Source: a virus
Taxonomy: Duplodnaviria > Heunggongvirae > Uroviricota > Caudoviricetes
Direction: 5' to 3' (one strand)
Length of the DNA stretch: 51,533 nt
IMG/VR virus record: IMGVR_UViG_2711768018_000019
This document shows, in pieces, positions 1 through 14,978 of the stretch (position 1 is the first letter of the stretch; every line of letters begins with the position of its first letter). The position numbers and the translations under genes were made by a program. The notes under the pieces are model-generated. The model ran no database searches. It was not told the DNA's origin and saw only the letters and a list, made by a program, of their open reading frames with translations.

Positions 1-573
1 ATGTTTTGCGAAGAAAAAGTAGCTCAAATGGCTGCATACCTACTTCTTAAGCGAGGTGGGCGCATGGCATATCTGAAATTGATGAAGCTGCTCTATCTGT
101 CTAACCGCAAGTCGATTTTGAAGCATGGCAGGATGATCGGCGAAGATAGCCTTTACTCTATGAAATTTGGTCCAGTCATGTCGAATACGCTGAACTTGAT
201 TCGTGGTAAGGCTGAAGGTATTGGTGACTACTGGTACAACCTGATAGAGACGAACGGGCATGATGTGTTGTTGCGTTCAGATCCGAGGGAAATGGATGCA
301 GACGAGGTCTTTGATGAGTTGAGCCGTGCAGATATCCGGATTTTAGATGAAATCTATTCTCTGTATGGGCATATGAACCGATTTGATCTCGCAAACATGA
401 CGCATTTAGAAAGCGTTTGTCCAGAGTGGCACAATCCTGGCAATTCTCGTAAGCCTATAGACCTGAAAGAAATGCTGATCAGTGAGGGTAAAAGCGAGGA
501 TGAGGCTAATCGTATAATTGGCAAAATGGAAGAATCTCAGAAACTTAAGGAATTTTCTTTGCAATTATCATGA
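1..573 (+). CDS. Panacea-domain (DUF4065, SocA/GepA-like) protein, putative antitoxin; may be 5'-truncated by the window edge
   Basis: 190-aa ORF with an N-terminal motif (YLKLMKLLYL ... GEDSLYSMKFGPV) that I recall as typical of DUF4065/Panacea proteins. Its stop overlaps the next ORF's start (ATGA). Confidence 0.5.
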   Translation: MFCEEKVAQMAAYLLLKRGGRMAYLKLMKLLYLSNRKSILKHGRMIGEDSLYSMKFGPVMSNTLNLIRGKAEGIGDYWYNLIETNGHDVLLRSDPREMDADEVFDELSRADIRILDEIYSLYGHMNRFDLANMTHLESVCPEWHNPGNSRKPIDLKEMLISEGKSEDEANRIIGKMEESQKLKEFSLQLS

Positions 574-989
574 CGGATTATCAGCCATACAGGAAAGGAA
601 CTGTGCTTGCCCCAACTGGGCCATGCAATCATCTTCATGTGATTTGTAATGATCCTGTTTATTACCCCGTTAACGATTGTTATTGTGTTTTAGTTGTTAA
701 TATTTCTAGTATCAAGGATGGTGTCCCCCACGATCCGTCTTGCGTCTTGAATTCTGGTGATCATCGCTTTATCAAGCATCCAAGTTATGTTGTTTACGCT
801 GAAGCTATAATTTGGCGAGTGGATAACATGGTTAGAAAGCAGCGATCGGGTGAGATTTCCGTTCATGATGATATGCCAGAAGCTACATTCAATAGAATTC
901 TGGACGGTTTTGATATATCTGATGAAGTTACGCCAAAGAACCTTAAATTTAAAAATAAATATTGCGTATCATCTATTGATGATGAGTAA
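570..989 (+). CDS. Hypothetical protein, candidate toxin partner of the Panacea protein
   Basis: 139-aa ORF, Cys/His-rich, no family recognised. Start overlaps the upstream stop by 4 nt, which suggests translational coupling. Confidence 0.4.
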   Translation: MTDYQPYRKGTVLAPTGPCNHLHVICNDPVYYPVNDCYCVLVVNISSIKDGVPHDPSCVLNSGDHRFIKHPSYVVYAEAIIWRVDNMVRKQRSGEISVHDDMPEATFNRILDGFDISDEVTPKNLKFKNKYCVSSIDDE

Positions 990-1028
990 ACAACAGGAAT
1001 TGTTTCGGTATAGCTTCTGGAGTTTTCT

Positions 1029-1202
1029 ATGGAAGATCAAAAAGCAACCAAGCCACAGGTTAAGTTCGACACAATGAAAGCATTCGCAGGTATGGGTGCT
1101 GCTGTTGAAGTTCTGATGAAGGCTGCTCCTAATGCGTTCACTCACGCTACTGTCTCTGGTAAAGAGCAGCAGGGTAAGCTTCGTCGTCGCAAAGCAGCAT
1201 GA
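1029..1202 (+). CDS. Small hypothetical protein (57 aa)
   Basis: Short ORF (MEDQKATKPQVKFDTMKAFAGMGAAVEVLMKAAPNAFTHATVSGKEQQGKLRRRKAA) ending 20 nt before a strong hairpin terminator. Below the ORF-track length cutoff; coding status uncertain. Confidence 0.2.
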   Translation: MEDQKATKPQVKFDTMKAFAGMGAAVEVLMKAAPNAFTHATVSGKEQQGKLRRRKAA

Positions 1203-1221
1203 TCATAGCTGGTGCTTTTTG

Positions 1222-1247
1222 AAAACCCGCCTTTAGGCGGGTTTTTT
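1222..1247. terminator. Rho-independent terminator between convergent genes
   Basis: Stem cccgcc / ggcggg with loop ttta, followed by a T-run, and with an A-run on the other side (aaaacccgcctttaggcgggtttttt). Confidence 0.6.
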
Positions 1248-1249
1248 CT

Positions 1250-1531
1250 TTAGTGATGTTCTTTGCCCTTCTGTTTGCCTGTTCTGACCTGTTCCCACTC
1301 GATACGTCCTTCTTCTCGTCTTTTGTCTATGTATTCCGCAAGATCCTGAATATTGATGCAACGTTTTGCTTTTTGTGATGTACCGATGCGATATGTAGGT
1401 ACAGGCAACTTACAAGCGTTTGCTTTTGCTTCTGCTGTGGCTGGACTCATACCAAAGTATTTTTGACTAACTGCTGAGAGTTCAATGTTTGGGGTATTGA
1501 ATTCAGCCATCAGTAAAAACAAGGTATTCAT
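1250..1531 (-). CDS. PrtN-family (pyocin-activator-like) phage transcriptional regulator
   Basis: 93-aa ORF starting MNTLFLLMAEF and ending ...IQDLAEYIDKRREE, which matches my recollection of the PrtN/pyocin-activator family of small prophage regulators. Confidence 0.5.
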   Translation of the reverse strand: MNTLFLLMAEFNTPNIELSAVSQKYFGMSPATAEAKANACKLPVPTYRIGTSQKAKRCINIQDLAEYIDKRREEGRIEWEQVRTGKQKGKEHH

Positions 1532-1567
1532 ATCATTTCTCCATCATAACCGGCTGCACCCGGTGAG

Positions 1568-2401
1568 TTACTTATTCATTTCAATAATATTATTTTCTAT
1601 CATTGATTTATTTAAAACCAAAGAAGGAGCAAGATGGTTGTCTATTTTAAACAATGCATAACTTTTAAACTGTTGGTGATATCCGTAACTAATAAGGATG
1701 CTAGAAAAATCTCTTAATTCATCTTCTTTTAAAAAATTAAAATGAAATGGGTTGTCACCATTTATGAACAATGAAACATCTATTATGCAGTATTTCTCTC
1801 CGTTGTCATTTGCATAGAAAAAAATATAAGACATTCTGTTTGTTAAGACAATGCCATTAAATTTTCTTATGTCTGTAGCTATTTTGTTTTCCATGTTTGG
1901 TGCTACATATTTATTTTCAGAAATACATTTAATTTCATCTCCAGATGTCGTGATTATATAAAAATGAAACTTATCAGAAATATCTAACTTAACTACGCCA
2001 TCATTATTGTAAAGGCTGCTAAATTTTGGTGGTTCAACTTTTAAAGAATCATAGTTCTTTAAAAGAAGAGGGGAGTCAAATTTAATAACTTGTAGTATCC
2101 CTTTACCTTCAACCTCCATATTGATTGAAGATATAGCAATTGCATTATCTCTTTTATTATTCAGGATTATGGTTGATATATGCATGTCATATATTCTACT
2201 TGCATTTGCTGAATACGACACTGTCACCTTTTTTGATATTTTTTGCACGCCAAAATATATAGTGAAGGCAGCGGCAAGAATAGATAAGAATTTAATGTCA
2301 AATAAGGACCATAGCCACATTAGTTGCTCAATTGCTTCAGAGTTAATCATTTGCTTTACCATTATCGCTGTAATACAACACATGTGTGTATATATACGCA
2401 A
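1568..2401 (-). CDS. AT-rich hypothetical membrane-anchored protein (possible superinfection-exclusion or abortive-infection function)
   Basis: 277-aa ORF in a markedly AT-rich segment, with a hydrophobic N-terminal helix (FLSILAAAFTIYFGV) and a Lys/Asn/Ile-rich body. Exact start is uncertain among several Met codons. Confidence 0.45.
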   Translation of the reverse strand: MRIYTHMCCITAIMVKQMINSEAIEQLMWLWSLFDIKFLSILAAAFTIYFGVQKISKKVTVSYSANASRIYDMHISTIILNNKRDNAIAISSINMEVEGKGILQVIKFDSPLLLKNYDSLKVEPPKFSSLYNNDGVVKLDISDKFHFYIITTSGDEIKCISENKYVAPNMENKIATDIRKFNGIVLTNRMSYIFFYANDNGEKYCIIDVSLFINGDNPFHFNFLKEDELRDFSSILISYGYHQQFKSYALFKIDNHLAPSLVLNKSMIENNIIEMNK

Positions 2402-2538
2402 TGCAATTATTTTGCAAGTGCTTCATTTACTATCAATAGCTACGTCACGTTATTGTTTAATGGTTCTTTATAGGGGCGGCAATAGTTAAAATTATCGCTT
2501 CCGTAAATGCCCCCGCAGGGGCATTTGCAGTAATGAAA

Positions 2539-3363
2539 TCAGGCGGTGAAAGTACCAATAAAGGTTTCTACTTTGCTGTCTTTGAATTTCTCAACAAGCA
2601 GATCACGAAATTCGTTAGCCATTTCTTCCTGTACCGCTTCCAGCTGAATAATGCGCAGAACCAGTACAGGACGATCGCCAGTGATAATGCTGAGGCGTAA
2701 TTTAAACGGACGTTCTTTCAGACCTTCAAACGGAACGCATTTAAATTCAAATGCCACTGGCATAATGTCTTTGGTCTTCGCTTCGACAGACTCCATCAGG
2801 GAGCGTTTGCCGCTGAAGTCATTATCTTCAAAATCAGCGGTCTGGTTCGCTTCAATTGTGATTTTACGGATCGCCGCAGCCGCTTTGGTTGCCTGAATGG
2901 CGTCACCATTAGCATCAAAGCCCACAAGGTAGTCGGCCCAGTCTTCAATCCATTCTGCCAGTGACTTCTGGGAGTTACGCTCGCCATTAACAGACAACAG
3001 AGCAGAGAACGGAGCTGTCTTTTTCAGTTTGAGAGTGGCGGTGTTATCTGCGTGACCTGGTTCATCAATAGTACCCAGGTTAAGAACACTGACGGCACGC
3101 ATATTATCAGCATCGATAAAGCAGCGGGTGCCTTCATCTGCAAGATCTTTAGAATAACGAGTAAAGTCATCGATGCTGGCAGTGGAAAGCGCACCACGGA
3201 AACGGAAACGATTTAAATTTAATTTTTCCAGATCATGAATGCGGAAATTCTCAGGCAATGCCACAGCATCGGCACCAATCTTACTGATAATTTCATTAAC
3301 ACCCTGAGCAGAAATAAGGGCATGGATTTGATTAATTGCGGTTGCGTCTAAGTTCTGAGACAT
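2539..3363 (-). CDS. YfdQ-like DUF2303 prophage protein
   Basis: 274-aa ORF beginning [21 protein letters not shown]. Size and sequence match my recollection of the YfdQ/DUF2303 family of lambdoid early-left-operon proteins. Confidence 0.5.
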
Positions 3364-3428
3364 AATAAGTCCTCACTATATAAAGATATTCAGTGATGAG
3401 ATAAATAATCGGTTAATTAAGAACGATA

Positions 3429-3791
3429 TTAATGACCTGCTGCGCGGAGTTTTCCGTCAGGTTCACCGGCAAGAGTCAGTAATTGTCCCTGGTCTTCCTG
3501 CAGAATAGTCAGGCGACCACCGCGATTGACATACATCGGCGTTTCGGTGGTGTCTTCTTCGGAAATTTTCCCGCGGTTAGTCGGGCGAACATATGAGAGT
3601 TTGTGTTTGATTTTCACACGGTTCTCATCAAATGGTTCGATTTCCAGGTTGAGTGAGACCTTACCTTTGGTTTTCGTGTTCATCACACCGGAAGCGACTT
3701 CACTGAGAACTGCGCCGATTTTGGTTTCAAATACGCCGCCGTCCAGCTCCCCAATAAATGCCTGCACATCAGTACTGCGTTCGCTAGCCAT
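3429..3791 (-). CDS. Hypothetical early-left-operon protein (121 aa)
   Basis: The ORF-track ORF 3429..3977 has an internal start (MASERSTDVQAF...) at 3791 preceded by an RBS-like aggagca; upstream ATGs lack an RBS. Gly/Glu-rich soluble protein. Confidence 0.4.
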   Translation of the reverse strand: MASERSTDVQAFIGELDGGVFETKIGAVLSEVASGVMNTKTKGKVSLNLEIEPFDENRVKIKHKLSYVRPTNRGKISEEDTTETPMYVNRGGRLTILQEDQGQLLTLAGEPDGKLRAAGH

Positions 3792-4410
3792 TTTGCTGCT
3801 CCTAATCATATCGACCCTGCAAGGTCGGTTGGTTTCTCCACAAAACAGAGAAGAACACCTGCGGTGGCAGCCGCCCGGATGGATTTGGTTATGAGCCCGT
3901 CGTCCGGTGATGCTCTTCTCTGTTTTGTAAAAAGAGCGGTACCAGCCGGAAGCAAGTGTACAAACTGGTACCGCCAAAGCAGTGGCTGTTGTGGTGACCG
4001 GTGCTGATCTCCGGCTTGCGGTTATTTCAGACTCTCACGGGCGTTTAATTGCCCCGCCGAACAGCTCTTTTCCGCATTAGCTGCAATGTCTTTCGCGCAT
4101 CAGCCTGCGCATTCACCACAACGCTGAGAGCACTTAGCCAGTTACGGCACCACACTTTGTCGCGGTTCCATAAATGTCCTCATCGTTGCACCCTGGTCTC
4201 TTCCCAGGCGTCAAACCGAATCGCCACGCTGGTTAGGCGTCTTATCAGCATCATCATTGACTTGCACATTCCGGCTACCTGGTTTGTTTGCCCGAGCAAG
4301 GAGTGGATTGTCCCCTTTAACGTCCCCAGACCGCTAACGACGCATGTGCCATACGCCGTGTTACAACCAAATTTTGTTTAATCTTGCCTGTGCTGTGTTT
4401 CTTTTAGATA

Positions 4411-4439
4411 CATTATGTATCCCAAAGGTACATTGTCAA
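4411..4439 (-). promoter_or_regulatory. pL-like leftward promoter with overlapping operator (OL)
   Basis: On the minus strand: -35 TTGACA (4439..4434), 17-nt spacer, -10 ATAATG (4416..4411). The palindrome ATGTATCccaaaGGTACAT (4415-4433) overlaps the spacer and shares the GGTACA half-site seen at OR. Confidence 0.5.
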
Positions 4440-4443
4440 GTAT

Positions 4444-4466
4444 AAAAAAACCTGCCGAAGCAGGTT
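4444..4466 (-). terminator. Rho-independent terminator downstream of the repressor gene
   Basis: Minus strand reads acctgcTTCGgcaggt followed by a 7-T run, 12 nt after the cI stop. Confidence 0.65.
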
Positions 4467-4477
4467 ATAAATATTGA

Positions 4478-5152
4478 TTAGGCCTTTATTATGTATCTTC
4501 TTGGTTTTCCTGAGAAAATCACTGTACCAATTATAGAGCAATTACCGTTAATCTTAATGTAAGGCTCAGGCCAGTTTGGGTTTAATGCTTTGAGATAACG
4601 CTGTGTTCCATCTTCTATCAACCGCTTGAAGGTGGTTTCGCCTGTATCGTGCATCAATGCAATAACGTCGTCACCGTGGCAGGCAGGGACTTCAGGATCA
4701 ACAAAAATCATGTCTCCCGGGCGGTACTCATCAATCATTGAATCACCAATCACCCGCAAGATATAAGTCATTTCGCCACAGGGTACAGGGCAGGGATAAG
4801 TTTCTGCTGTGCTCAAATCAACCTCAGAATAGCCAACTTCTTTCCATGCTCCGGCCTGTACCCATGATATGACAGGGACTAACGTTATTTGTTTGTTAGT
4901 GATTGAAACGTCAGGTTTTTTTGTGATGTTCGTTGTCTGGTGTTCTTGATCAAGCCATCCGACAGGCAGGTCGAAACATTTTTCGATGTGCCGTGCCATG
5001 CTGTCACCGATATTTTTAGTTGCACCATCTCCCATAAACCTGCTGGTCTGGGTTGGCTCGCGATCAATCATGGTGGCAAAGGAAGAATTCCCGCCAACAC
5101 CATCTCTCAGTTTTCTGGCGTTAGACCGCCGGATGTCATGGACTGTTTTCAT
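4478..5152 (-). CDS. cI: CI-type prophage repressor (HTH plus S24 LexA-like peptidase domain)
   Basis: 224 aa. N-terminal HTH region and a C-terminal S24 signature with Ser in GDSM (VIGDSMIDEYRPGDMIFVD) and a downstream Lys (TTFKRL). Divergent from the Cro-like gene across an operator region. Confidence 0.8.
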   Translation of the reverse strand: MKTVHDIRRSNARKLRDGVGGNSSFATMIDREPTQTSRFMGDGATKNIGDSMARHIEKCFDLPVGWLDQEHQTTNITKKPDVSITNKQITLVPVISWVQAGAWKEVGYSEVDLSTAETYPCPVPCGEMTYILRVIGDSMIDEYRPGDMIFVDPEVPACHGDDVIALMHDTGETTFKRLIEDGTQRYLKALNPNWPEPYIKINGNCSIIGTVIFSGKPRRYIIKA

Positions 5153-5242
5153 AAAGAAATTAAAACCTTTGTACCGATAAGGTACAAGTATCTTGAAGGT
5201 TCATCTCAATCATGTAATATGTATACCGGAGGTACATATTGT
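5153..5242. promoter_or_regulatory. OR region: operators with divergent pRM/pR promoters
   Basis: Perfect palindrome TTGTACCgataaGGTACAA at 5169-5187; second imperfect site GTATACCggaGGTACAT at 5221-5237. pR candidate: -35 TTGAAG (5193-5198), 16-nt spacer, -10 TAATAT (5215-5220), upstream of the Cro-like ATG at 5243. Confidence 0.55.
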
Positions 5243-5443
5243 ATGAAAGCGTATTGGGACTCTTTAACCAAAGAACAGCAGGGTGAGTTGGCCGGAAAAG
5301 TTGGCTCAACACCAGGCTACTTACGGCTGGTTTTCAATGGTTATAAAAAAGCCAGTTTTGTGCTGGCTAAAAAACTTGAGCAATGCACGTCAGGTGCAAT
5401 TACGAAATCTGACTTAAGACCGGATATCTATCCGAAAGATTAA
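5243..5443 (+). CDS. cro: Cro-like (YdaS-family) HTH regulator
   Basis: 66-aa ORF (MKAYWDSLTKEQQGELAGKVGSTPGYLRLV...SDLRPDIYPKD) with RBS ggagg. The HTH and C-terminal DLRPD motif are typical of YdaS/Cro-family proteins. Not in the ORF track because the 4940..5443 frame shadows it. Confidence 0.6.
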   Translation: MKAYWDSLTKEQQGELAGKVGSTPGYLRLVFNGYKKASFVLAKKLEQCTSGAITKSDLRPDIYPKD

Positions 5444-5474
5444 CAGAACACCTTCAATTTTTAACCACAGAACG

Positions 5475-6038
5475 ATGAGGCTAACCGTGGGTAAGCATCA
5501 CTGGAAAGTAGAAAAACAGCCTGAGTGGTACGTGAAAGCTGTCAGAAAAACTATCGCGGCGTTGCCGGGGGGTTACGCTGAAGCTGCTGAGTGGCTGGAT
5601 GTAACAGAGAACGCTTTATTCAACCGCCTTCGTGCAGATGGCGATCAGATTTTCCCGCTGGGATGGGCAATGATTTTACAGCGCGCGGCTGGCACTCACT
5701 ACATTGCGGATGCTGTCGCACAGTCTGCTGGTGGGGTGTTTGTATCGCTTCCTGAAATTGAGGAAGTAGAGAACGCCGATATAAACCAGCGCCTGCTGGA
5801 AGTCATCGAACAGATCGGGAGTTACTCAAAGCAGATTCGTTCGGCAATCGAAGATGGGGTAGTGGAGCCACACGAGCAGACAGCAATTAATGATGAGTTG
5901 TATCTGTCAATTTCGAAGCTCCAGGAGCATGCAGCACTGGTCTACAAAATCTTTTGCGCTCCAGAAAAGAGTGACGCCCGCGAGTGTGCAGCTCCGGGCG
6001 TCGTGGCGTTTTGTGTCTGTGGAGAAACTAACGCATGA
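5475..6038 (+). CDS. YdaT/CII-like early regulatory protein
   Basis: 187-aa ORF immediately after the Cro-like gene, which is the conserved YdaS-YdaT arrangement. Assignment rests on position and general resemblance only. Confidence 0.4.
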   Translation: MRLTVGKHHWKVEKQPEWYVKAVRKTIAALPGGYAEAAEWLDVTENALFNRLRADGDQIFPLGWAMILQRAAGTHYIADAVAQSAGGVFVSLPEIEEVENADINQRLLEVIEQIGSYSKQIRSAIEDGVVEPHEQTAINDELYLSISKLQEHAALVYKIFCAPEKSDARECAAPGVVAFCVCGETNA

Positions 6039-6871
6039 ACAGTTTAACGGCAAATAACCGTTTGTCGCAACAGCTGGTGGTCAGCGTCGCTGAACACCTG
6101 TTGTTACGGCATGAATGCAGATTACCAAATCACCTGGCTGTAAGTAACCACAGAGAACTTTACCTGACTGTGGGGGGCGAGTTGTGCAGGAACTTAACCG
6201 CTGGTTTCGTGACGGAAGAGGACTTTATGTTCATGTTATTCGTTGGGAGCCAGAAACACAGCGCGTTATCTATCTTCGCAAAGACTACCCGCATGAGTGC
6301 TTTAGTCCTTTGTGGAAATTCAGGCGTGATTTTGTTGAGTGTGAAGGACCACCAGCACATTGATTCTGCCATTCCGGGACGTTACACTGTTCAGGCACCT
6401 TATAAAGCGGGTGCCGGGATTGGCGTCCTGGAATTGATCAAGGCGATATATGACGCGCCAGCGTCTTTTTTATCGTCCGCATTTGCTCACATCAAAGTTA
6501 TGGTGGGCTGGGCGGGGGCATCGAAAGATGCGCCGGTTTCCTTGATCACCGGTTACGCCAACCCCGTTCAGTTCACCACCAGCGAAATTGGCGTTTCCGG
6601 TGGTGGAAGTATTTCACCGATCAAGGAGGCTGCCATCATGGCTACTGTCCCAGCCCTCACTCGTCTGAATGATGAAGACTTACATAAACTCAGTTATGTA
6701 ACAACTGCACTACGTGCTCTGCGCAAGGTAACTCTTTCGGATCCGCAGGCACATCAGGTTCTGGTAGAAACCCTTCTTAACTTGCAAGCTGAACGTATTC
6801 GTCTGGCGGATAAGGCTAATTTTCATATTCACCGTCTCCTGAATATCAGCGGAGGGCATCGTCATGCTTAA
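6035..6871 (+). CDS. Hypothetical protein; ORF may be composite or contain a frameshift
   Basis: 278-aa open frame. A GTG-initiated alternative frame (about 6186-6365, with GGGGGG RBS) encodes a more protein-like peptide, and an internal ATG at 6638 has a strong AAGGAGG RBS. Confidence 0.3.
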   Translation: MNSLTANNRLSQQLVVSVAEHLLLRHECRLPNHLAVSNHRELYLTVGGELCRNLTAGFVTEEDFMFMLFVGSQKHSALSIFAKTTRMSALVLCGNSGVILLSVKDHQHIDSAIPGRYTVQAPYKAGAGIGVLELIKAIYDAPASFLSSAFAHIKVMVGWAGASKDAPVSLITGYANPVQFTTSEIGVSGGGSISPIKEAAIMATVPALTRLNDEDLHKLSYVTTALRALRKVTLSDPQAHQVLVETLLNLQAERIRLADKANFHIHRLLNISGGHRHA

Positions 6872-7100
6872 TCCGTTGATCCTCAATATTTGCCGTTTGC
6901 TTCAGCGTAAAAAAATATCAATTCCTACAGTTGGGCAGTGGTACACCACGCCTGCAGGGCATGTTCTACGTGTTAGCCTGGTTGACCGTGAATGCCAGAA
7001 GGTGATTTGTGAACCGCTGGGCCGTAATTACCGCGTCAGTATGCCGCTTATAGCCTTTCGCTCCGGAAAAAACATGAAGCATCTCGGAGGTGCAGCATGA
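6864..7100 (+). CDS. Small hypothetical protein (78 aa)
   Basis: ORF overlapping the stop of the preceding ORF and the start of the following gene, as in tightly packed phage operons. Confidence 0.3.
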   Translation: MLNPLILNICRLLQRKKISIPTVGQWYTTPAGHVLRVSLVDRECQKVICEPLGRNYRVSMPLIAFRSGKNMKHLGGAA

Positions 7101-7915
7101 GTATGGAGCTGATGGTTAAAGCGATGAAAATTCGAGTGGGTAATCCATTGCGAAAACTGGTTCTGATCAAGCTGGCTGATAATGCCAGCGATCAGGGTGA
7201 GTGCTGGCCCAGCTACCAGCATATTGCTGACCAGTGCGAAATTAGCAAACGTTCTGTGATGAATCATATTGCGGCCCTTTGTGAGTCCGGGCTGGTAAAA
7301 AAAGTCACCCGGAAAGGTGAAAAAGGTAACTCAAGTAATATCTATCTCCTTCATCTGGATGGTGCAGGAGATTCACTAGGGGGTAGTGCAAATAATTCAC
7401 TATCTGGTGCAGCAAATTCACCAGGTAGTGCAGGAGTTGCACCAGGGGGTAGTGCAGGAGATTCACCCAGAACCAGTCACTCTTTTGAACCAGTCAAAGA
7501 ACCAGTCAATGAACCAATAGCTGTTGGTGCATCAGTTGATGAGTCCGTGCGAGTTCGTTCAAACCGACCGGAATACTCTCCGGAGTTTGAGCAGGCATGG
7601 CTGGCATATCCCAAACGTGCTGGTGGCAATTCAAAATCTGCAGCCTTCAAAGCCTGGAAAGCCCGTTTGAATGAGGGAGTAAACCCCGAAACCATGCTGG
7701 AAGGTGTGAAACGCTACGCGGGATGGGTATCTGCGATGGGTAACAGCGGCACACAATTTGTGAAACAGGCTGTCACGTTCTTTGGTCCGGATCGTCATTT
7801 CGAAGAATTCTGGGAAGTTCCTGCGGTATCTGCAGCCAGACGCGAGGACCCGTACTTCAAAGCCAGTTACGACAACGTGGACTACAGCCAGATCCCGGCA
7901 GGATTCAGGGGGTGA
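7097..7915 (+). CDS. Replication initiation protein (HTH_36 / O-like replisome organiser)
   Basis: 272 aa with RBS ggagg. N-terminal winged-helix region, a low-complexity linker encoded by iteron-like DNA repeats, and a conserved C-terminal region. Sits in the lambda O position. Confidence 0.55.
   Translation: MSMELMVKAMKIRVGNPLRKLVLIKLADNASDQGECWPSYQHIADQCEISKRSVMNHIAALCESGLVKKVTRKGEKGNSSNIYLLHLDGAGDSLGGSANNSLSGAANSPGSAGVAPGGSAGDSPRTSHSFEPVKEPVNEPIAVGASVDESVRVRSNRPEYSPEFEQAWLAYPKRAGGNSKSAAFKAWKARLNEGVNPETMLEGVKRYAGWVSAMGNSGTQFVKQAVTFFGPDRHFEEFWEVPAVSAARREDPYFKASYDNVDYSQIPAGFRG
7360..7520. repeat. Iteron-like direct repeats inside the replication gene (candidate origin)
   Basis: Repeated units ggtgcaggagattcac (7361-7376 and 7452-7467), ggtagtgca(gga) several times, and three copies of gaaccagtca at 7470-7510. 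Confidence 0.45.
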
Positions 7916-7917
7916 TC

Positions 7918-8406
7918 ATGAGTCTTTTGAATGAAGTTCAGAAATTCATTGAAGCCCATCCGGGGTGTACTTCCGGAGACATTGCGGATGCTTTTGCAGG
8001 TTACTCACGGCAGCGCGTTCTGCAGTCAGCAAGCAAGTTACGTCAGAGTGGGCGTGTGGCTCACCGTTATGAAGGAGATACACGCAGACATTTCCCACGC
8101 CTGACTGAGAGAGCGCAGGAGCCGGAACCACAACCAGTTCGTGAAACCAGACCTGTGCGCAATTTCTATGTCGGCACTAACGATCCCCGGGTGATTTTGT
8201 GCCTGACCCGCCAGGCGGAAGAACTGGAGTCCAGGGGCTTATACCGTCGTGCTGCAACGGTGTGGATGGCGGCATTCCGTGAAAGCCACTCCCAGCCAGA
8301 ACGAAACAATTTTCTGGCGCGTCGTGAGCGGTGCTTACGGAAAAGCAGCAAGCGCGCTGCATCGGGTGAAGAGTGGTATCTGTCAGGGAATTACGTGGGG
8401 GCTTAA
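7918..8406 (+). CDS. Hypothetical protein with PerC/ANR-like C-terminal motif
   Basis: ATG at 7918 with RBS cagggggtgatc. The C-terminal segment LYRRAATVWMAAF resembles the PerC/ANR small-regulator family as I recall it. Confidence 0.35.
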   Translation: MSLLNEVQKFIEAHPGCTSGDIADAFAGYSRQRVLQSASKLRQSGRVAHRYEGDTRRHFPRLTERAQEPEPQPVRETRPVRNFYVGTNDPRVILCLTRQAEELESRGLYRRAATVWMAAFRESHSQPERNNFLARRERCLRKSSKRAASGEEWYLSGNYVGA

Positions 8407-9059
8407 TGAGTAATAAATATTGCCAGGCGCTGGTGGAGCTGCGGAACAAACCAGCCCATGAACTGAAGGAAGTGGGCGATCAGTGGCGCACGCCGGATAA
8501 CATTTTCTGGGGAATTAACACCCTGTTTGGCCCGTTTGTTCTGGATCTGTTCACTGATGGTGATAACGCCAAATGTGCCGCTTATTACACTGCGGAAGAC
8601 AACGCGCTGGCGCATGACTGGTCTGAACGTCTTGCGGAGCTTAAAGGTGCTGCCTTTGGTAATCCCCCGTACAGCCGCGCCAGTCAGCATGAAGGGCAAT
8701 ACATCACCGGCATGCGTTACATCATGAAACATGCCAGTGCCATGCGTGATAAGGGCGGACGCTATGTTTTCCTGATCAAAGCTGCCACCAGCGAAGTGTG
8801 GTGGCCGGAAGATGCAGATCATATTGCTTTTATTCGCGGGCGTATTGGTTTTGAACTGCCTGCCTGGTTTATCCCGAAGGACGAGAAGCAGGTGCCGACA
8901 GGCGCTTTCTTCGCTGGTGCTATTGCTGTTTTCGACAAGACCTGGAAGGGACCGGCAATCAGCTACATCGGGCGCGATGAACTTGAGGCATGTGGTGAGG
9001 CGTTTCTGGCGCAGGTTCGCCAGCAGGCGGAAAAACTGGTCAGGGAGATGGCGGCATGA
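8406..9059 (+). CDS. Phage Dam-family N6-adenine DNA methyltransferase
   Basis: 217 aa. Catalytic NPPY motif (AFGNPPYSR) and overall similarity to the phage N-6-adenine-methyltransferase family. Start overlaps the upstream stop (TAATG). Confidence 0.7.
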   Translation: MSNKYCQALVELRNKPAHELKEVGDQWRTPDNIFWGINTLFGPFVLDLFTDGDNAKCAAYYTAEDNALAHDWSERLAELKGAAFGNPPYSRASQHEGQYITGMRYIMKHASAMRDKGGRYVFLIKAATSEVWWPEDADHIAFIRGRIGFELPAWFIPKDEKQVPTGAFFAGAIAVFDKTWKGPAISYIGRDELEACGEAFLAQVRQQAEKLVREMAA

Positions 9060-9382
9060 CGACGTTAACTCAATGCCAGCAGCAGGTGCTGGATATGCTG
9101 ATTTCTTACCAGAAAGAACGTGGCTTCCCGCCAACCAATCAGGAGGTGGCAACCATGCTGGGATACCGTTCAGTGAATGCAGCGGTGGAACATCTTCGCG
9201 CACTGGAGAAAAAAGGCGTCATCACGATAAAGCGTGGCATGGCCCGGGGTATCACTCTTCATACCGCGGTGAAGGACGACGACAGCGAGGCGGTCGGGAT
9301 TATCCGCTCACTGCTTGCCGGTGAGGAAAACGCCAGGCTGCGTGCAACCCACTGGTTACATGAGAGAGGCCTGAAAGTATGA
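9056..9382 (+). CDS. LexA DNA-binding-domain-only protein
   Basis: 108-aa ORF (LTQCQQQVLDMLISYQKERGFPPTNQEVATMLGYRSVNAAVEHLRALEKKGVITI) closely parallels the LexA N-terminal winged helix. No S24 peptidase domain follows. Confidence 0.6.
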   Translation: MTTLTQCQQQVLDMLISYQKERGFPPTNQEVATMLGYRSVNAAVEHLRALEKKGVITIKRGMARGITLHTAVKDDDSEAVGIIRSLLAGEENARLRATHWLHERGLKV

Positions 9383-9768
9383 AGCTGATCCTGCCTTTCC
9401 CGCCCAGCGTGAACACGTACTGGCGACACCCCAACAAAGGGGCATTTGCTGGTAAGAGCCTGATAAGCGCGGCGGGGCGAAAATTTCAGAGCGCGGCGTG
9501 CGCAGCAATAGTTGAGCAGTTACGTCGTCTGCCAAAACCAACGTCGGCACCTGCTTCAGTGGAGATCGTGTTGTTTCCTCCGGATAACCGGATCCGCGAT
9601 CTGGACAACTATAACAAGGCGCTGTTTGACGCCCTGACCCACGCGGGGGTGTGGGAAGACGACAGCCAGGTGAAAAGAATGCTGGTGGAGTGGGGACCGG
9701 TTATCCAGAAAGGGAAGGTCGAGATCACTATCAGTAAGTATGAGAAACCGGCGGGTGCAGCCGCCTGA
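9379..9768 (+). CDS. rusA: RusA Holliday-junction resolvase
   Basis: 129 aa; PFPPSVNTYWRH ... RDLDNYNKALFDALTHAGVWEDDSQV matches RusA family catalytic motifs. Confidence 0.8.
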   Translation: MKLILPFPPSVNTYWRHPNKGAFAGKSLISAAGRKFQSAACAAIVEQLRRLPKPTSAPASVEIVLFPPDNRIRDLDNYNKALFDALTHAGVWEDDSQVKRMLVEWGPVIQKGKVEITISKYEKPAGAAA

Positions 9769-9787
9769 TCAAGAGGAGAAACGAAGT

Positions 9788-10597
9788 ATGAATAATCTGA
9801 TGGTCATTGATGGTATTGAAGTTCGTCGTGATGCTTATGGGCGTTACAGCCTGAACGATCTGCACAGGGCAGCCGGGGGAGAACAAAAAAACCGCCCGAA
9901 ATACTGGCTCTCCAATAAGCAAACCTGTGAATTGATTGAACAACTTTTCACCGAGGGTGGAATTCCGCCTCTGGAACAAAATCAACCAGTTAGCGTCATT
10001 AATGGCGGAAATAACCAGGGGACGTATGTCTGCAAAGAACTGGTGTATGCCTATGCAATGTGGATCAGCCCGTCATTCCATCTGAAGGTGATCCGTACTT
10101 TCGACATGGTAACCAGCGCACCGGAAAAATTATCCGGACAGGCTGCTGACAAGATGCAGGCTGGCGTGATCCTGCTGGACTTTATGCGCCGGGAATTAAA
10201 TCTGTCTAACTCATCAGTGCTTGGAGCCTGTCAGAAGCTTCAGGAGGCTGTTGGCTTACCGAATCTGGCACCGCGCTATGCCATTGATGCTCCTGCTGAC
10301 GCGCCTGATGGCTCAAGTCGCCCCACGCTGTCGCTGAGTGCACTGCTGAAGCAGTATGGTATCCGCCTGACGGCTAATCAGGCATATCACCAGATGGTGA
10401 AGCTGGGGATCGTTGAACAACGCGAACGATACAGCCGTACCGCGATTAACAACATCAAAAAATTCTGGTCGCTGACGGCGAAAGGCTGCATGTTCGGCAA
10501 GAACATCACCAGTCCTGCAAATCCGCGCGAGACGCAGCCGCATTTCTTCGAATCCCGATTCCCTGAGCTGTTAAAGCTGCTCGATACCGTTCATTGA
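9788..10597 (+). CDS. KilA-N domain protein
   Basis: ATG at 9788 with RBS agaggag. The N-terminal region (IDGIEVRRDAYGRYSLNDLHRAAGGEQKNRPKYWLSNKQTCELIEQL) follows the KilA-N pattern. Confidence 0.55.
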   Translation: MNNLMVIDGIEVRRDAYGRYSLNDLHRAAGGEQKNRPKYWLSNKQTCELIEQLFTEGGIPPLEQNQPVSVINGGNNQGTYVCKELVYAYAMWISPSFHLKVIRTFDMVTSAPEKLSGQAADKMQAGVILLDFMRRELNLSNSSVLGACQKLQEAVGLPNLAPRYAIDAPADAPDGSSRPTLSLSALLKQYGIRLTANQAYHQMVKLGIVEQRERYSRTAINNIKKFWSLTAKGCMFGKNITSPANPRETQPHFFESRFPELLKLLDTVH

Positions 10598-10598
10598 G

Positions 10599-11594
10599 GT
10601 GACCGTGAGAGCACTACTGACCCCTGAAATTGCCCCGCGTATGGGGATCGTATTGTTCAGGCCAGGTTCAGAGCTGATGCCCCTGTTTATGCAGGGGCGT
10701 GTTCTGCTGGAGCCTGAGCCGGAACGTTATTCATCTTTCGCCAGTGGTGCCGTTCCGGCGGCATCACAACCGCTGGCGGATGATCCTGCCGTTCGGGCCG
10801 TGTTCCGCAATGAGGCAGTGATCCGTCGTGCTGGTGGCGTGGAATGTCTTGAAAGCTGGTTACTTCGTGAAAAAGGCTGCCAGTGGCCTCATTCCGACTG
10901 GCACAGCGAGAACATGACCACAATGCGACACGCTCCGGGCGCAATCCGTCTGTGCTGGCACTGCGATAACCAGCTGCGCGATCAGTTCACGGAACGGCTG
11001 GAATCAATGGCAACGGATAACTGTGCCCGCTGGGTGTTGTCTGTTGTGCGTCGGGATCTCGGTTTTGATGATAGTCACGTTGTGACAATGCCGGAACTGT
11101 GCTGGTGGCTGATTCGTAATGACCTGGCGGATGCCTTACCGGAAAGTGCAGCCCGTAAGGCACTGAGATTACCAAAGCCTGTTGTGCCGTCTGTCACCCG
11201 GGAAAGTGACCTTGTGCCTTCGGTTCCTGCCACCAGCATCATCCAGGATAAGGCAAAAAAGGTGCTGGCGCTGAAAGTGGATCCGGAGTCGCCGGAGTCT
11301 TTTATGTTACGCCCAAAACGCCGCCGCTGGGTTAATGAAAAGTACACGCGCTGGGTTAAGACACAGCCGTGTGCATGTTGTGGAAAGCCTGCTGATGATC
11401 CCCACCACCTGATAGGCCACGGTCAGGGTGGAATGGGTACAAAAGCGCATGACCTCTTTGTGTTGCCTTTGTGCAGAAAGCATCACGACGAGCTGCATGC
11501 GGATACCGTGGCATTTGAAGAGAAGTATGGCTCCCAGCTGGAGCTGATATTTCGTTTTATCGATCGTGCGCTGGCAATTGGCGTATTGGCGTAA
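10599..11594 (+). CDS. DUF968 (YdfU-like) nin-region protein with C-terminal HNH-like zinc motif
   Basis: 331 aa; C-terminal CACCGKPADDPHHLIGHGQGG ... CRKHHDELH. Position before Q matches YdfU in Qin-type prophages. Start codon uncertain (GTG per ORF track). Confidence 0.5.
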   Translation: MTVRALLTPEIAPRMGIVLFRPGSELMPLFMQGRVLLEPEPERYSSFASGAVPAASQPLADDPAVRAVFRNEAVIRRAGGVECLESWLLREKGCQWPHSDWHSENMTTMRHAPGAIRLCWHCDNQLRDQFTERLESMATDNCARWVLSVVRRDLGFDDSHVVTMPELCWWLIRNDLADALPESAARKALRLPKPVVPSVTRESDLVPSVPATSIIQDKAKKVLALKVDPESPESFMLRPKRRRWVNEKYTRWVKTQPCACCGKPADDPHHLIGHGQGGMGTKAHDLFVLPLCRKHHDELHADTVAFEEKYGSQLELIFRFIDRALAIGVLA

Positions 11595-11607
11595 GTGGAG
11601 AACGAGC

Positions 11608-12360
11608 ATGAACCTTGAAGCCTTACCAAAATATTACTCCCCAAAATCTCCAAAATTGAGCGATGACGCACCGGCGACAGGCTCAGGTGGTTTAACGATT
11701 ACGGATGTGATGGCTGCGCAGGGGATGGTGCAGTCGAAAGCACCGCTTGGGTTTGCCTTATTCCTGGCAAAAGTTGGTGTTCAGGATCCTCAATTTGCGA
11801 TTGAAGGTCTGCTCAATTACGCGATGGCACTGGATAACCCGACATTGAACAAATTGAGTGAAGAAACCCGGTTACAGATCATCCCTTACCTTGTGAATTT
11901 TGCCTTTGCTGATTATTCCAGGTCTGCGGCAAGTAAGGCTCGCTGTGAGCATTGTGCTGGTACTGGATTTCATAATGTATTGCGCGAAGTGGTGAAACAC
12001 TCCAGAAGCGGGGAATCTGTTATCAAGGAAGAGTGGGTGAAGGAACTATGTCAGCATTGCCATGGTAAGGGAGAAGTCAGCACAGCGTGCAGAGGGTGTA
12101 AGGGTAAAGGTATTGTCCTGGATGAAAAAAGAACCCGGCTTCATGGTGTGCCTGTTTATAAGATTTGTGGGCGTTGCAATGGCAACCGGTTTAGCCGTTT
12201 ACCAACCACACTGGCGCGGCATCATGTCCAGAAACTGGTACCGGACCTGACGGATTATCAGTGGTACAAAGGATATGCAGACGTTATTAATAAACTGGTT
12301 ACAAAGTGCTGGCAGGAAGAAGCGTATGCTGAATCGCAATTGAGAAAAGTGACAAGATAG
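11608..12360 (+). CDS. Q: Late-gene antiterminator Q
   Basis: 250 aa from the ATG at 11608 (RBS ggag). Cys-rich zinc-finger region (CEHCAGTG ... CQHCHGKG ... CRGCKGKG ... CGRCNG), followed by a promoter plus terminator as expected for PR'/tR'. Confidence 0.6.
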   Translation: MNLEALPKYYSPKSPKLSDDAPATGSGGLTITDVMAAQGMVQSKAPLGFALFLAKVGVQDPQFAIEGLLNYAMALDNPTLNKLSEETRLQIIPYLVNFAFADYSRSAASKARCEHCAGTGFHNVLREVVKHSRSGESVIKEEWVKELCQHCHGKGEVSTACRGCKGKGIVLDEKRTRLHGVPVYKICGRCNGNRFSRLPTTLARHHVQKLVPDLTDYQWYKGYADVINKLVTKCWQEEAYAESQLRKVTR

Positions 12361-12391
12361 ATAATTTTCGCCGAAGATGTCGACGTGATAC

Positions 12392-12420
12392 TTGCATTTT
12401 TCAAAAAATATGGATAAGAT
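12392..12420 (+). promoter_or_regulatory. Candidate PR' late promoter
   Basis: -35 TTGCAT (12392-12397), 17-nt spacer, -10 TAAGAT (12415-12420), located 30 nt after the Q stop and about 45 nt before the tR'-like terminator. Confidence 0.4.
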
Positions 12421-12463
12421 TTTCTCAACGATGGGCCTTGTATGTCTACCGTTGGTAAATGTC

Positions 12464-12492
12464 AAAAACCCGCCGCTGAGCGGGTTTTTTGT
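12464..12492 (+). terminator. tR'-like rho-independent terminator
   Basis: aaaaacccgccgctgagcgggttttttg: GC stem plus T-run. A near-identical copy lies at 13143-13170. Confidence 0.65.
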
Positions 12493-12639
12493 GCCTGATG
12501 TCTCATGAAACTATGAAATGGATTGGTGCGTTAAACATTTTTTCTTATTATCTTTTAGATTTTGGAGAGATGGTTAACGTCTGTATTCCAGAAACTCGAT
12601 GGTTATTTAATAAATTAGTTTCAATGATGCTTCTAGGTT

Positions 12640-13065
12640 ATGACTGTAATGAAAAAGGTATTAATAGCAGCGATAGGTTTTTGTTTAGTTGGTTGTGCAG
12701 GTATGAAATTACCTGAGTATTCGCAAGTTAAAGCAAGTCCGTATTATACAGATTGCCGTGCGTTTGCCATGGATGTTTATAAAAATGATGGATACAGCAA
12801 AATTGCGAAAACTACTATCCTTAGCATGGATGATGTGAAAGCTAGATATATTGTGACAGGGTGTGTAGTTGCTATGGGGAAAAACACTGTAGAGGAAATC
12901 AAAGCTGATCTCTCTGCTAAAGGGAGTTCTTTTGGGCTTATCAGTGGAGCTTGTTCTAGTGCGGCATGTCGGGTTGATGTAGAGCAGCAAATGAACGCTT
13001 ATGTACTTGGTAGTTATTATGCTGCAAATAAAAAATTCCCGGATAAAATGAAAGCAGAGTTTTAA
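12640..13065 (+). CDS. Lipoprotein moron
   Basis: Signal peptide with lipobox (MKKVLIAAIGFCLVGCAG). AT-rich relative to flanking phage genes; flanked by duplicated terminators. Start is 12640 or 12649. Confidence 0.6.
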   Translation: MTVMKKVLIAAIGFCLVGCAGMKLPEYSQVKASPYYTDCRAFAMDVYKNDGYSKIAKTTILSMDDVKARYIVTGCVVAMGKNTVEEIKADLSAKGSSFGLISGACSSAACRVDVEQQMNAYVLGSYYAANKKFPDKMKAEF

Positions 13066-13142
13066 GCAAACCTTGTTTTCGATTATATGTCGAAGATAAA
13101 TGTTAGTAACGGCATAATAAGTAAATATATAGCTGTGATAGC

Positions 13143-13170
13143 AACCCGCCACTGAGCGGGTTTTTTGTAC
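13143..13170 (+). terminator. Rho-independent terminator (second copy of the tR'-like element)
   Basis: aacccgccactgagcgggttttttgtacc, differing from the 12467-12495 copy at two positions. Confidence 0.6.
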
Positions 13171-13264
13171 CCGTAAACTTGGTGCAGTACAGTAAACACG
13201 CTGGTGGTCGTGAATACTGACTTTTTATCTTGCTGGCTTTTTAGACAAGAGTTATTGGTATGTC

Positions 13265-13492
13265 ATGTTAACCAGAAGGGAAAAAGACATGCTAAAACAG
13301 CAAGATATGACAGAAACCGCCGCCGCAGTCCTTCATTTCTTACCTGCTGACAAGTGGGTAACGCCACGCATGATGACGAGAACTACCGGAGTAAGCGAAG
13401 CCCGGTGCCAGTTAATACTGACTCAGTTAGTTCTGGCGGGTCTGGCGAAGGATAACGGCGGGTACGGGAATAAATTCAGACGCTGCCAGTAA
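13265..13492 (+). CDS. Small hypothetical protein (75 aa)
   Basis: ORF between the lipoprotein moron and the methyltransferase; no family recognised. Confidence 0.3.
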   Translation: MLTRREKDMLKQQDMTETAAAVLHFLPADKWVTPRMMTRTTGVSEARCQLILTQLVLAGLAKDNGGYGNKFRRCQ

Positions 13493-13642
13493 TGGCGGTT
13501 TCCTGCTGTGAAAATGGGCGGCTGGTGGGTGTTGGTAGCACCTGCCAGCCATTCGCTCATGCTTACTGGTCACAAGCGAACCACGGCCCACTGCTTTAGC
13601 GCAAAAGCAGAGTGAGCCTACCAGAGTTACGCTTACTGATCC

Positions 13643-14695
13643 ATGAAAAATACTGTAAAAATAAACAGTGTTGATTTAATCAACGCTGATTGCCTGCATT
13701 TTATTCAGTCCCTGCCTGATGATTCCATTGACCTGATTGTTACCGATCCGCCTTACTTCAAGGTGAAACCCAACGGTTGGGACAATCAGTGGAAAGGGGA
13801 CGAAGATTACCTTAAGTGGCTGGACCACTGTCTGGCCCAGTTCTGGCGGGTGTTGAAACCTGCCGGAAGCCTTTACCTGTTCTGTGGGCATCGCCTGGCA
13901 TCTGATATTGAGATCATGATGCGTGAACGTTTCAACGTGCTTAACCATATCATCTGGGCGAAGCCGTCCGGACGTTGGAATGGGTGTAATAAAGAAAGTC
14001 TGCGCGCATATTTTCCTGCCACAGAGCGCGTTCTGTTTGCTGAACATTACCAGGGGCCATATCGCGGCAAAAGTGACGGCTATGCGGCAAAAGAAAGGGA
14101 ACTCAAACAGCACATAATGGCACCGCTGATATCGTATTTCAGGGATGCTCGTGCCGAACTGGGTATAACGGCAAAACAAATTGCCGAAGCCACAGGTAAG
14201 AAAAATATGGTTTCCCACTGGTTTGGTGCCAGTCAGTGGCAGTTGCCGAATGAGGCTGACTATCGGAAGTTACAGGCACTGTTTTCCCGTATAGCGGCAG
14301 AGAAGTTTCAGGAACAACAACTGGAACAACCACACCACCAGCTGGTGGCATCTTATGATTCACTGAATCGTAAATATTCTGAATTGCTGGATGAGTTTAA
14401 ATCTCTCCGGCGCTATTTCTCCGTATCAGTCTCCGTGCCTTATACCGATGTCTGGATGCATAAACCCGTTCAGTTCTACCCGGGGAAACATCCGTGTGAG
14501 AAACCGGCGGATATGCTCAGGCAAATAATCAATGCCAGTAGTCGACCAGGTGATCTGGTTGCTGATTTTTTTATGGGATCCGGTTCCACAATAAAAGCAG
14601 CAATGGCGCTGGGGCGTCGGGCCTTAGGTGTTGAGCTTGAGTCAGAGCGGTTTAATCAGACAGTGAAAGAGATAAACGAGCTGGTGGGGAAATAA
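13643..14695 (+). CDS. DNA methyltransferase (DPPY-motif N6-adenine/N4-cytosine family), apparently orphan
   Basis: 350 aa. Motif [11 protein letters not shown] near the N-terminus, with a C-terminal SAM-binding region (DFFMGSGST) typical of beta-class amino-methyltransferases. No adjacent restriction endonuclease. Confidence 0.75.
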
Positions 14696-14699
14696 TCTG

Positions 14700-14726
14700 G
14701 TGGCCACGTCAGGTGGCCTTTTTATT
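14700..14726 (+). terminator. Hairpin terminator upstream of the lysis cassette
   Basis: ggccac gtcag gtggcc followed by tttttat. Confidence 0.4.
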
Positions 14727-14762
14727 TCCATTACACAGCACCCGCATCTGCGAGGTGGGGTT

Positions 14763-14978
14763 ATGAAATCCATGGATAAGTTAACAACGGGTGTCGCCTA
14801 TGGCACCTCAGCAGGTAGTGCCGGGTACTGGTTTTTACAGTTGCTCGATAAAGTCACGCCCTCACAGTGGGCGGCAATAGGTGTGCTGGGTAGTCTGGTA
14901 TTTGGCTTGCTGACGTATCTGACAAACCTTTATTTCAAGATTAAAGAAGACAAGCGTAAGGCTGCACGGGGAGAGTAA
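14763..14978 (+). CDS. S: Phage-21-type pinholin (S21-like) with dual start
   Basis: [71 protein letters not shown] is near-identical to S21 as I recall it, including the Met1/Met4 dual-start arrangement. Confidence 0.75.

Follow-up and report, generated by a model that had tools for sequence, protein, structure and literature searches.

What does a prophage do with the DNA-binding head of LexA when the autocleavage domain is left out? The question is raised by a lambdoid prophage (Caudoviricetes) on a stretch of 51,533 nucleotides (IMG/VR virus record IMGVR_UViG_2711768018_000019; the whole stretch is hereafter called the window). One of its genes, at positions 9056–9382, encodes a 108-aa protein with a LexA head and no more of LexA than that, which we name LexN. 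Cleavage of LexA is the central switch that governs the response to DNA damage, mutagenesis, the induction of prophages and the release of colicins and toxins. Our answer is a tentative one: LexN is possibly a RecA-proof binder of LexA-box-type operators. Its LexA-like head, the conserved DNA contacts, the SOS boxes of the phage and the SOS-box promoters found ahead of the gene in some relatives support this reading.

The LexA-type head and the C-terminal hairpin

Residues 1–65 of LexN matched the Pfam LexA_DNA_bind profile (PF01726) over its entire length (positions 1–65 of 65), with E=2.1e-19 and 69.5 bits against a cut-off of 23.7. In a phmmer search of the Protein Data Bank (PDB), the LexA DNA-binding domain (1lea) was recovered with E=9e-16, and residues 2–69 of LexN aligned to residues 2–69 of LexA without a gap. 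The AlphaFold (AF2) model of LexN, with a predicted local distance difference test (pLDDT) score of 79, has three helices and a two-stranded wing, as expected, and Foldseek placed it on the LexA-DNA complex 3jso with a root-mean-square deviation (rmsd) of 1.4 Å over 68 residues and 50% identity. The close likeness of the open reading frame (ORF) to the LexA N-terminal winged helix, asserted in an earlier note on this DNA together with the alignment to LexA as a check, is thus borne out.

The same note had claimed that the S24 protease domain is lacking, and this held as well. No Pfam match to Peptidase_S24 was found in LexN, which stops at residue 108, and the Ser119/Lys156 dyad of LexA is absent. 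The NCBIfam lexA equivalog model (TIGR00498) was covered only at positions 1–91 of 203, and the score of 71.3 bits is below the curated cut-off of 110.95. In the absence of the S24 domain, LexN is unable to self-cleave. HMMER aligned A88-G89 of LexN (in LLAGE, residues 86–90), at the end of an AF2-predicted helix, to A84-G85 of LexA (VAAGE). This pair was rejected as a working cleavage site, because no protease domain is present and the pair is poorly conserved: in the 188 distinct sequences of the family, position 88 is S, A, E or N, position 89 is G in 61%, and LLANEE and LLVGEE variants occur. Compared with E. coli LexA (PDB 1jhh, 3jso; TIGR00498), LexN therefore retains the homologous winged helix-turn-helix and has lost the S24 peptidase and dimerisation domain, the catalytic dyad and the conserved Ala-Gly site; it has a hairpin instead, and is phage-encoded in a nin operon. 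As judged from its sequence, LexN is a genuine LexA winged-helix homologue and not a LexA orthologue, and we propose that it was derived from the enterobacterial LexA lineage.

The last 40 residues of LexN form a conserved helical module rather than a disordered stub. In the AF2 model, a low-confidence linker (residues 69–75) leads into a confidently predicted two-helix hairpin. A profile search of 1.84 billion representative proteins recovered about a dozen full-length relatives that keep the hairpin at 38–49% identity (from Cronobacter, Kosakonia, Enterobacter, Cedecea, Klebsiella and Salmonella), and across the family A97 and L101 are near-invariant and the hydrophobic pattern is retained. 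No sequence match to the tail was found in the PDB, and the fold search with LexN returned the winged-helix part only. Because a 30-residue hairpin cannot bury a hydrophobic core on its own, we infer that it mediates dimerisation or contact with a partner, in place of the dimerisation role of the S24 domain. As far as our searches show, the hairpin tail and the SOS-box promoter link in relatives (see below) have not been described; the conserved hairpin, like the third strong SOS box of the window, goes beyond what the earlier note reported.

In architecture, LexN resembles repressors of the BlaI/MecI type, which join a small winged helix to a short all-helical C-terminal module. MecI, MntR and ArsR-type proteins were among its weak fold matches (E>0.004, rmsd 4–12 Å), and there is no sequence relationship with BlaI/MecI. 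BlaI and MecI are inactivated by proteolysis, whereas no such route is known for LexN.

The gene is under purifying selection and widespread. The ratio of nonsynonymous to synonymous substitution rates (dN/dS) was 0.09–0.15 between LexN and its SfV, mEp460 and Shigella alleles, and 0.18–0.27 within one diverged subfamily. Of 5426 complete E. coli genomes, 2233 (~41%) carry the gene, with up to four copies per genome; it also occurs in 61 phage records, including Stx2a, Stx2c and Stx2k phages. The dN/dS values and the presence in 41% of complete E. coli genomes show that a function is maintained. A pseudogene or relic was rejected on the dN/dS values and the conservation at 38–49% identity, and a defence-system component was also discarded, as PADLOC gave only a marginal match to the winged helix (E=3e-4).

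The gene and its annotation are already in the databases. PHROG 362 ('transcriptional repressor') matched LexN at full length (E=4.3e-59, residues 1–108 vs. profile 1–106 of 106); E. coli copies are annotated as 'LexA family transcriptional regulator', 'LexA family protein' or 'LexA repressor', and the SfV GenBank record (U82619.2) carries the gene as 'orf42: unknown'. Full-text literature searches found no functional study of it. By sequence, LexN belongs to a varied class of LexA_DNA_bind proteins without S24, within which it is a hairpin-tailed subfamily confined to prophages of Enterobacteriaceae. In the search of representative proteins, single-domain (69–78 aa) and tandem two-domain (140–350 aa) members of the class were also found. 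The tandem proteins (P0127, P0129, P0130, P0137, P0140, P0145, P0146 and P0148) might make up for the lost LexA dimerisation domain as 'pseudo-dimers' within a single chain; in one of them a 6-pyruvoyl-tetrahydropterin synthase domain is fused on.

DNA contacts and SOS boxes

LexA contacts DNA bases through Ser39, Asn41, Ala42, Glu44 and Glu45 (PMC3091678). Four of these five residues (S39, N41, A42 and E45) are present in LexN, where V replaces E44, and 9 of the 14 residues of the recognition helix, as read from the phmmer alignment, are the same as in LexA. In the family, S39 and N41 are conserved in 100% and A42 in 98% of the sequences, and K53, R64, G65, I66, Q8, P25 and P26 in 100%. The invariant or near-invariant residues of the winged helix-turn-helix (L4, T5, Q8, V11, G23, P25, P26, E30, A32, G36, S39, N41, A42, K53, R64, G65 and I66) are those of E. 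coli LexA, and in one clade the recognition helix (SSPNAAAEHLKAL) differs from that of LexA solely by E44A.

Kim and Little are said to have found in 1992 that the isolated LexA N-terminal domain binds operators cooperatively, dimerising on the DNA, and this domain represses when overproduced. The N-terminal autocleavage fragment of LexA (residues 1–84), with the same domain content as the LexN head, keeps weak, cooperative operator binding. The natural fragment is a short-lived breakdown product that is cleared by ClpXP via its new C-terminus, whereas LexN has a gene of its own that is under selection, and bears an additional conserved tail. From the contact residues, binding of LexN to canonical SOS boxes, perhaps with a relaxed or shifted preference, is plausible.

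An approximate position-specific scoring matrix (PSSM) was built from 27 E. coli SOS boxes. Exact CTGT-N8-ACAG was found four times in the window against 0.62 expected, and three sites scored 21–24 bits with the PSSM, in the range of genuine boxes (Table 1). Two of them are the pair upstream of dinI to which the earlier note had pointed, each with a perfect CTGT-N8-ACAG. The pair lies over the dinI promoter, and in mEp460 a promoter is annotated at the equivalent place. By their sequence these two are certainly sites of host LexA, and they are candidate targets of LexN.

The third box, also a candidate target, covers codons 3–9 of a late DNA methyltransferase gene (13643–14695, N6/N4). Its CTGT...CAG is invariant in nine phages with 70–100% nucleotide identity, though codons 2–3 vary; these phages span E. 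coli, Klebsiella, Citrobacter, Hafnia and Morganella, and the box is also found at 34170 of locus L001 and at 41021 of mEp460 (L002). It may serve as a LexA site or, as RNA, form a hairpin where translation starts. The non-coding leader ahead of the gene (13560–13642) is strongly conserved across the same phages, and 13560–13675 folds as a stable hairpin (minimum free energy −30.4 kcal/mol, z = −3.05). In an Aeromonas phage with a homologous methylase, a Com-like translational regulator is annotated beside it; by analogy, this suggests a mom/com-style control of the methyltransferase.

The SOS box is the only repeated operator-like palindrome in this phage and in mEp460, with 3–4 copies. All palindromes of 5+5 and 6+6 with spacers of 0–14 were enumerated in the window and in four phage genomes; everything recovered was an SOS box, a terminator hairpin or duplicated tail DNA. 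The enumeration of all 4+4 palindromes with spacers of 4–12 around LexN in six locus groups gave only codon-driven words. A syntenic GCTG-N10-CAGC proved to lie in the conserved coding stretch W-V-K-x-Q-P-C of DUF968, and the inverted repeats in the Q-to-methylase intergenic regions contained nothing operator-like.

SOS boxes also occur near repressor genes. In mEp460, the 5′ portion of the cI-like repressor gene contains a very strong box (31970–31989, e.g., TACTGTTTTTACATACAGTA, 25 bits), and a similar box ~3.5 to 4.5 kb upstream of LexN, near the repressor gene, was seen in a minority of related phages (such as L033, L035, L043, L049 and L080). The cI gene of the window has none.

The LexN gene in related phages and in its operon

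We fetched 265 IMG/VR loci of five LexN subfamilies, in which two arrangements were recognized. Type ii, found in the Klebsiella and Cedecea-like subfamilies, carries LexN with an N-terminal extension of 25–30 aa (same PHROG 362) in a cassette that consists of a promoter with an SOS box, an optional dinI, a phrog_1813 ORF, LexN, a phrog_1212 ORF, an optional RusA-like gene, DUF968 and Q. In 72 of 80 Klebsiella and 24 of 34 Cedecea-like loci, an SOS box preceded the LexA-homologous portion of the gene by 525–690 nt, and this placement recurs in at least four clades with differing recognition helices. In eight representative loci, a sigma-70-like promoter was seen with a TTGxxx −35 element ~22–25 nt upstream of the box and a −10 element that abuts or overlaps it; in L239, promoter and box stand directly before phrog_1813 and LexN, without dinI. 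No plus-strand terminator was found between the SOS box and LexN in the two type ii loci scanned. In many Klebsiella-type loci dinI lies immediately upstream of LexN, and in Klebsiella the next gene upstream is UmuD-like and carries its own SOS box.

With an SOS-box promoter upstream, type ii LexN is very likely SOS-inducible and, by its position, placed among SOS-modulating accessory genes. This arrangement is the strongest independent link of the family to the SOS circuit, although it is an association and not proof of function. An 'SOS island' of this kind was noted in a Klebsiella prophage (L157, 9008–10698; also L004, 1–1169), which begins with an Abi-alpha/AIPR defence gene. Next stand a UmuD-like gene that has its own SOS box and a terminator, then the SOS-box promoter (L157, 9469–9531) that drives dinI, phrog_1813, the LexN homologue and phrog_1212, and finally DUF968 and Q. 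If there is no terminator in between, direct LexA control could extend in part to Q there.

The type i arrangement is that of the window and of the Enterobacter/mEp390, Cronobacter and Kosakonia subfamilies. Here RusA is the most constant neighbour, with rusA immediately 3′ of LexN in 80 of 80, 55 of 56 and 15 of 15 loci of three subfamilies; DUF968 follows ~1.1 kb and Q ~2.1 kb downstream of LexN. LexN also lies upstream of rusA and/or DUF968-HNH and Q in SfV, mEp460, mEp390 and one Klebsiella phage.

In the window, the early-right genes are, in order, cro, a CII-like gene, and genes for an Ash-family protein, an HTH_36/DnaD-like replication protein, a PerC-like protein, Dam, LexN and RusA; then come a KilA-N protein, a DUF968/HNH protein, Q and the late N6/N4 methyltransferase, followed by the lysis genes and terminase. 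This order places LexN between the replication genes and Q, within the early-right (nin) operon of a lambdoid prophage. A Shine-Dalgarno sequence (GGGAG) precedes its ATG by 8 nt. The TGA of dam overlaps the ATG of LexN as ATGA, and the ATG of rusA overlaps the LexN stop in the same way; by this layout LexN is translationally coupled to both genes. The nearest phages are mEp460, cdtI, SfV, SfII, SfIV and Ayreon, plus Stx2c, Stx2a and Stx2k phages. Directly 5′ of dam, an early-operon gene (7912–8406, +) codes for a protein of 164 aa in which Pfam recognized a PerC transcriptional-activator domain (E=8e-9); PerC-like prophage proteins activate virulence genes in pathogenic E. coli.

Table 1. Coordinates of LexN, its parts, its neighbours and the SOS boxes in the window.
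Feature	Position	Strand	Remarks
LexN gene	9056–9382	+	108 aa, ATG start, stop codon included (ORF listing, Pfam, PHROG)
Winged helix-turn-helix, residues 1–68	9056–9259	+	helices 6–22 and 28–35, recognition helix 40–52, wing strands 56–59 and 65–68 (AF2)
Recognition helix, residues 39–52	9170–9211	+	SVNAAVEHLRALEK; S39, N41, A42 and E45 kept, V replaces E44
Two-helix hairpin, residues 75–103	9278–9364	+	helices 75–87 and 93–103 (AF2, pLDDT 87–88)
Dam, phage N6-adenine methyltransferase	8373–9059	+	Pfam Dam E=1e-45
RusA Holliday-junction resolvase	9379–9768	+	Pfam RusA E=2e-15
cI-type S24 repressor	4478–5152	-	RecA-cleavable type
Q antiterminator	11566–12360		
Third strong SOS box	13651–13670		TACTGTAAAAATAAACAGTG; 22.5 bits; candidate target
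Two canonical SOS boxes	48886–48933 (48886–48905 and 48914–48933)		CACTGTATTTGTATACAGTA and AACTGTATGGATAAACAGTG; 23.9 and 21.3 bits; CTGT-N8-ACAG at 48888–48903 and 48916–48931
Prophage dinI	48625–48873	-	Pfam DinI E=1e-19; downstream of both SOS boxes

A promoter of its own for LexN in the window was rejected. A sigma-70 scan of 7800–14800 gave no more promoter-like matches than expected from shuffled sequence, and the hits over 7,000–13,600 were likewise at shuffle level. The SfV authors annotated a promoter ahead of dam, but the same hexamer positions are poor in the window (TGGCGC / TACGGA). Over coordinates 1–13,600 the best PSSM score was only 9.5 bits (13231–13250), so that no SOS box lies 5′ of LexN. 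Because LexN lies inside the nin operon without a promoter or SOS box of its own, it would be expressed after induction or infection and not in the resting lysogen, that is, in the lytic cycle. For the same reason the influence on prophage induction timing that the earlier note had considered appears less likely than an action in lytic growth.

These data bear on a second way in which LexN could use SOS boxes, as a brake on SOS in the lysogen that competes at the boxes before or during SOS, damps the host response and shifts the induction threshold of the prophage. The Klebsiella and Cedecea loci would suit such a brake, with an uncleavable product behind an SOS-box promoter, often beside the SOS damper gene dinI, acting as SOS-induced negative feedback; the promoter annotated ahead of dam in SfV would also suit it. 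The window, however, has neither a box nor a convincing promoter 5′ of LexN, and the gene is embedded through its ATGA overlaps in an operon repressed by cI. Moreover, the repressor of the phage is itself a RecA-cleavable S24 protein, which a LexA mimic cannot protect. We consider a lysogen brake unlikely.

The coupled adjacency of rusA in type i loci, with DUF968 ~1.1 kb downstream, raises the alternative that LexN is an accessory of DNA metabolism and not a transcription factor. Its winged helix and tail would then assist RusA, Dam or DUF968-HNH, perhaps by guiding the resolvase to phage DNA in replication or recombination or by holding it back there, or would bind a host protein; nin regions are rich in recombination functions. 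However, the adjacency is mostly lost in the Klebsiella type, where a RusA match was found in 0 of 80 loci, and a window-type RusA match was found in only 5 of 34 Cedecea-type loci (a further, more divergent RusA-like ORF was seen in 5 loci of the Cedecea type). RusA is common in phages that do not carry a LexN gene, and the invariant base-reading residues of LexA argue for sequence-specific binding of duplex DNA. Such an accessory role is quite improbable.

Proposed action of LexN and the specificity of its head

As a binder of LexA-box-type operators, LexN would be a small sequence-specific protein that combines the LexA winged-helix head with a helical hairpin for dimerisation. In the window it would be a delayed-early (nin-region) product, made from the early-right operon once cI is cleaved or upon infection. 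It would bind LexA-box-type palindromes, with CTGT-like half-sites at the spacing of SOS boxes, and repress, and RecA* could not inactivate it. Repression at LexA-controlled promoters would thereby be restored or maintained after host LexA has been cleaved. The phage dinI promoter and the methylase box would be its targets, possibly together with host SOS genes or LexA-controlled rival elements. In type ii phages, LexN would be an SOS-induced feedback brake. The data establish the fold, the homology, the lack of S24, the conservation, the purifying selection, the genomic position and the presence of SOS boxes; we infer the dimerisation via the tail, the DNA target, the repressive outcome and the timing of expression.

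Several observations weigh against this proposal: (i) position 44 is never acidic in the family (A, T, L or V in all 188 sequences) and position 45 is labile (E 41%, L 24%, D 23%, A 11%), so that recognition of exact CTGT is not assured, and LexN of the window has C7 where LexA and 99% of the family have R7; (ii) the methylase box is equally conserved in phages of the phage collection without a LexN match by tblastn (phiP27, phiNP, Flotzy, Stx2_EH2201 and Morganella IME1369_02), for which reason it was rejected as a private target of LexN, and no phage-borne box is tied specifically to LexN; (iii) a strong SOS box lies within ±10 kb of LexN in only 8 of 80, 7 of 56 and 6 of 15 type i loci; and (iv) gp6 of GIL01, the sole characterised precedent, activates at a different site (PMC6182141).

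GIL01 gp6, from a Bacillus thuringiensis tectivirus, is like LexN a phage-encoded, RecA-insensitive protein that is essentially a LexA-type DNA-binding domain. This truncated LexA homologue turns on the late promoter P3 from GaCACAnnTGTGaC, a palindrome over the −35 element and distinct from the LexA box, to which it binds (PMC6182141). By analogy, the head of LexN might read a phage-specific, non-SOS operator and activate or repress a phage promoter (e.g., late or accessory) as a second step of the lytic cascade. A shifted specificity is a real possibility in view of the family-wide loss of E44 and the variation at position 45, with several clades that have hydrophobic residues at both positions (AVALH, AVLLH). 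The gene for gp6 lies downstream of an early promoter controlled by host LexA, and SOS-box promoters likewise precede the Klebsiella and Cedecea relatives of LexN, although LexN of the window does not.

The gp6-like role as a whole nevertheless appears doubtful to us. The palindrome enumeration (five genomes and six locus groups) gave no alternative operator, and in these phages late expression is already provided by Q antiterminators. S39, N41 and A42 are invariant, and the LexN recognition helix is far nearer to that of host LexA than is that of gp6, in which the key residue K38 stands in the place of LexA N41; LexN keeps N there. The two proteins differ in host clade and phage type, and gp6 (66 aa) is without a C-terminal hairpin. 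They show no BLASTP similarity and can be aligned only via the shared LexA fold; the two truncations are independent.

If LexN does act at LexA-box-type operators, prophages in ~40% of E. coli genomes and in relatives among the Enterobacteriaceae could carry a RecA-proof LexA surrogate that re-imposes repression after LexA has been destroyed, a broader claim that we regard as less probable than operator binding itself. It would be an operator-level anti-SOS factor that complements DinI and PsiB, and a mechanism beside the known RecA-level anti-SOS factors of mobile elements. The likeness to DinI and plasmid PsiB is one of functional analogy only, as accessory genes of mobile elements that restrain SOS, without homology: DinI and PsiB act on RecA filaments through protein-protein contact, whereas LexN would act at DNA operators. 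During lytic growth, the host SOS regulon and LexA-controlled rivals (colicins, antirepressor-induced prophages and SOS toxins) would be silenced, and in Klebsiella-type phages LexN would be an SOS-induced negative-feedback brake co-expressed with DinI. Many natural strains of E. coli, Shigella and Klebsiella would then have SOS dynamics unlike those of K-12, and Shiga-toxin phage biology could be influenced through the Stx2a, Stx2c and Stx2k phages that carry the gene. If the specificity is shifted, LexN would join GIL01 gp6 as a second, independent example of a LexA head put to use by a phage for its own regulation.

Other features of the prophage were noted. The tail-gene region is present twice (30124–34088 vs. 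36185–40215, ~6.06–6.13 kb apart, 91–96% identity), and it contains five masked runs of N (34125–34374, 35210–35514, 37262–37498, 39594–39915 and 40354–40396); it is either a real tandem duplication or an artefact of assembly or masking. A terminator hairpin (AACCCGC-N6-GCGGGTT followed by a T run) occurs in three copies (1224–1249, 12467–12492 and 13143–13168), the second and third of which flank an AT-rich lipoprotein ORF (12640–13065), as expected of moron boundaries.

At the right end, a DRT-type reverse transcriptase and its SLATT partner are followed by dinI, the integrase gene and dusA of the host. The reverse transcriptase (PADLOC RT_UG17, E=1e-158) and an overlapping gene for an RT-associated SLATT two-transmembrane effector (E=4e-56; Pfam SLATT_5) make up a defence moron between the tail-fibre genes and dinI (46503–48402, minus strand). 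The integrase gene (48934–50031, minus strand) abuts the 5′ end of dusA (50120–51157, plus strand), an order that points to an integration module directed at dusA. Unlike in lambda, this module occupies the right end of the prophage, beyond the tail-fibre genes.

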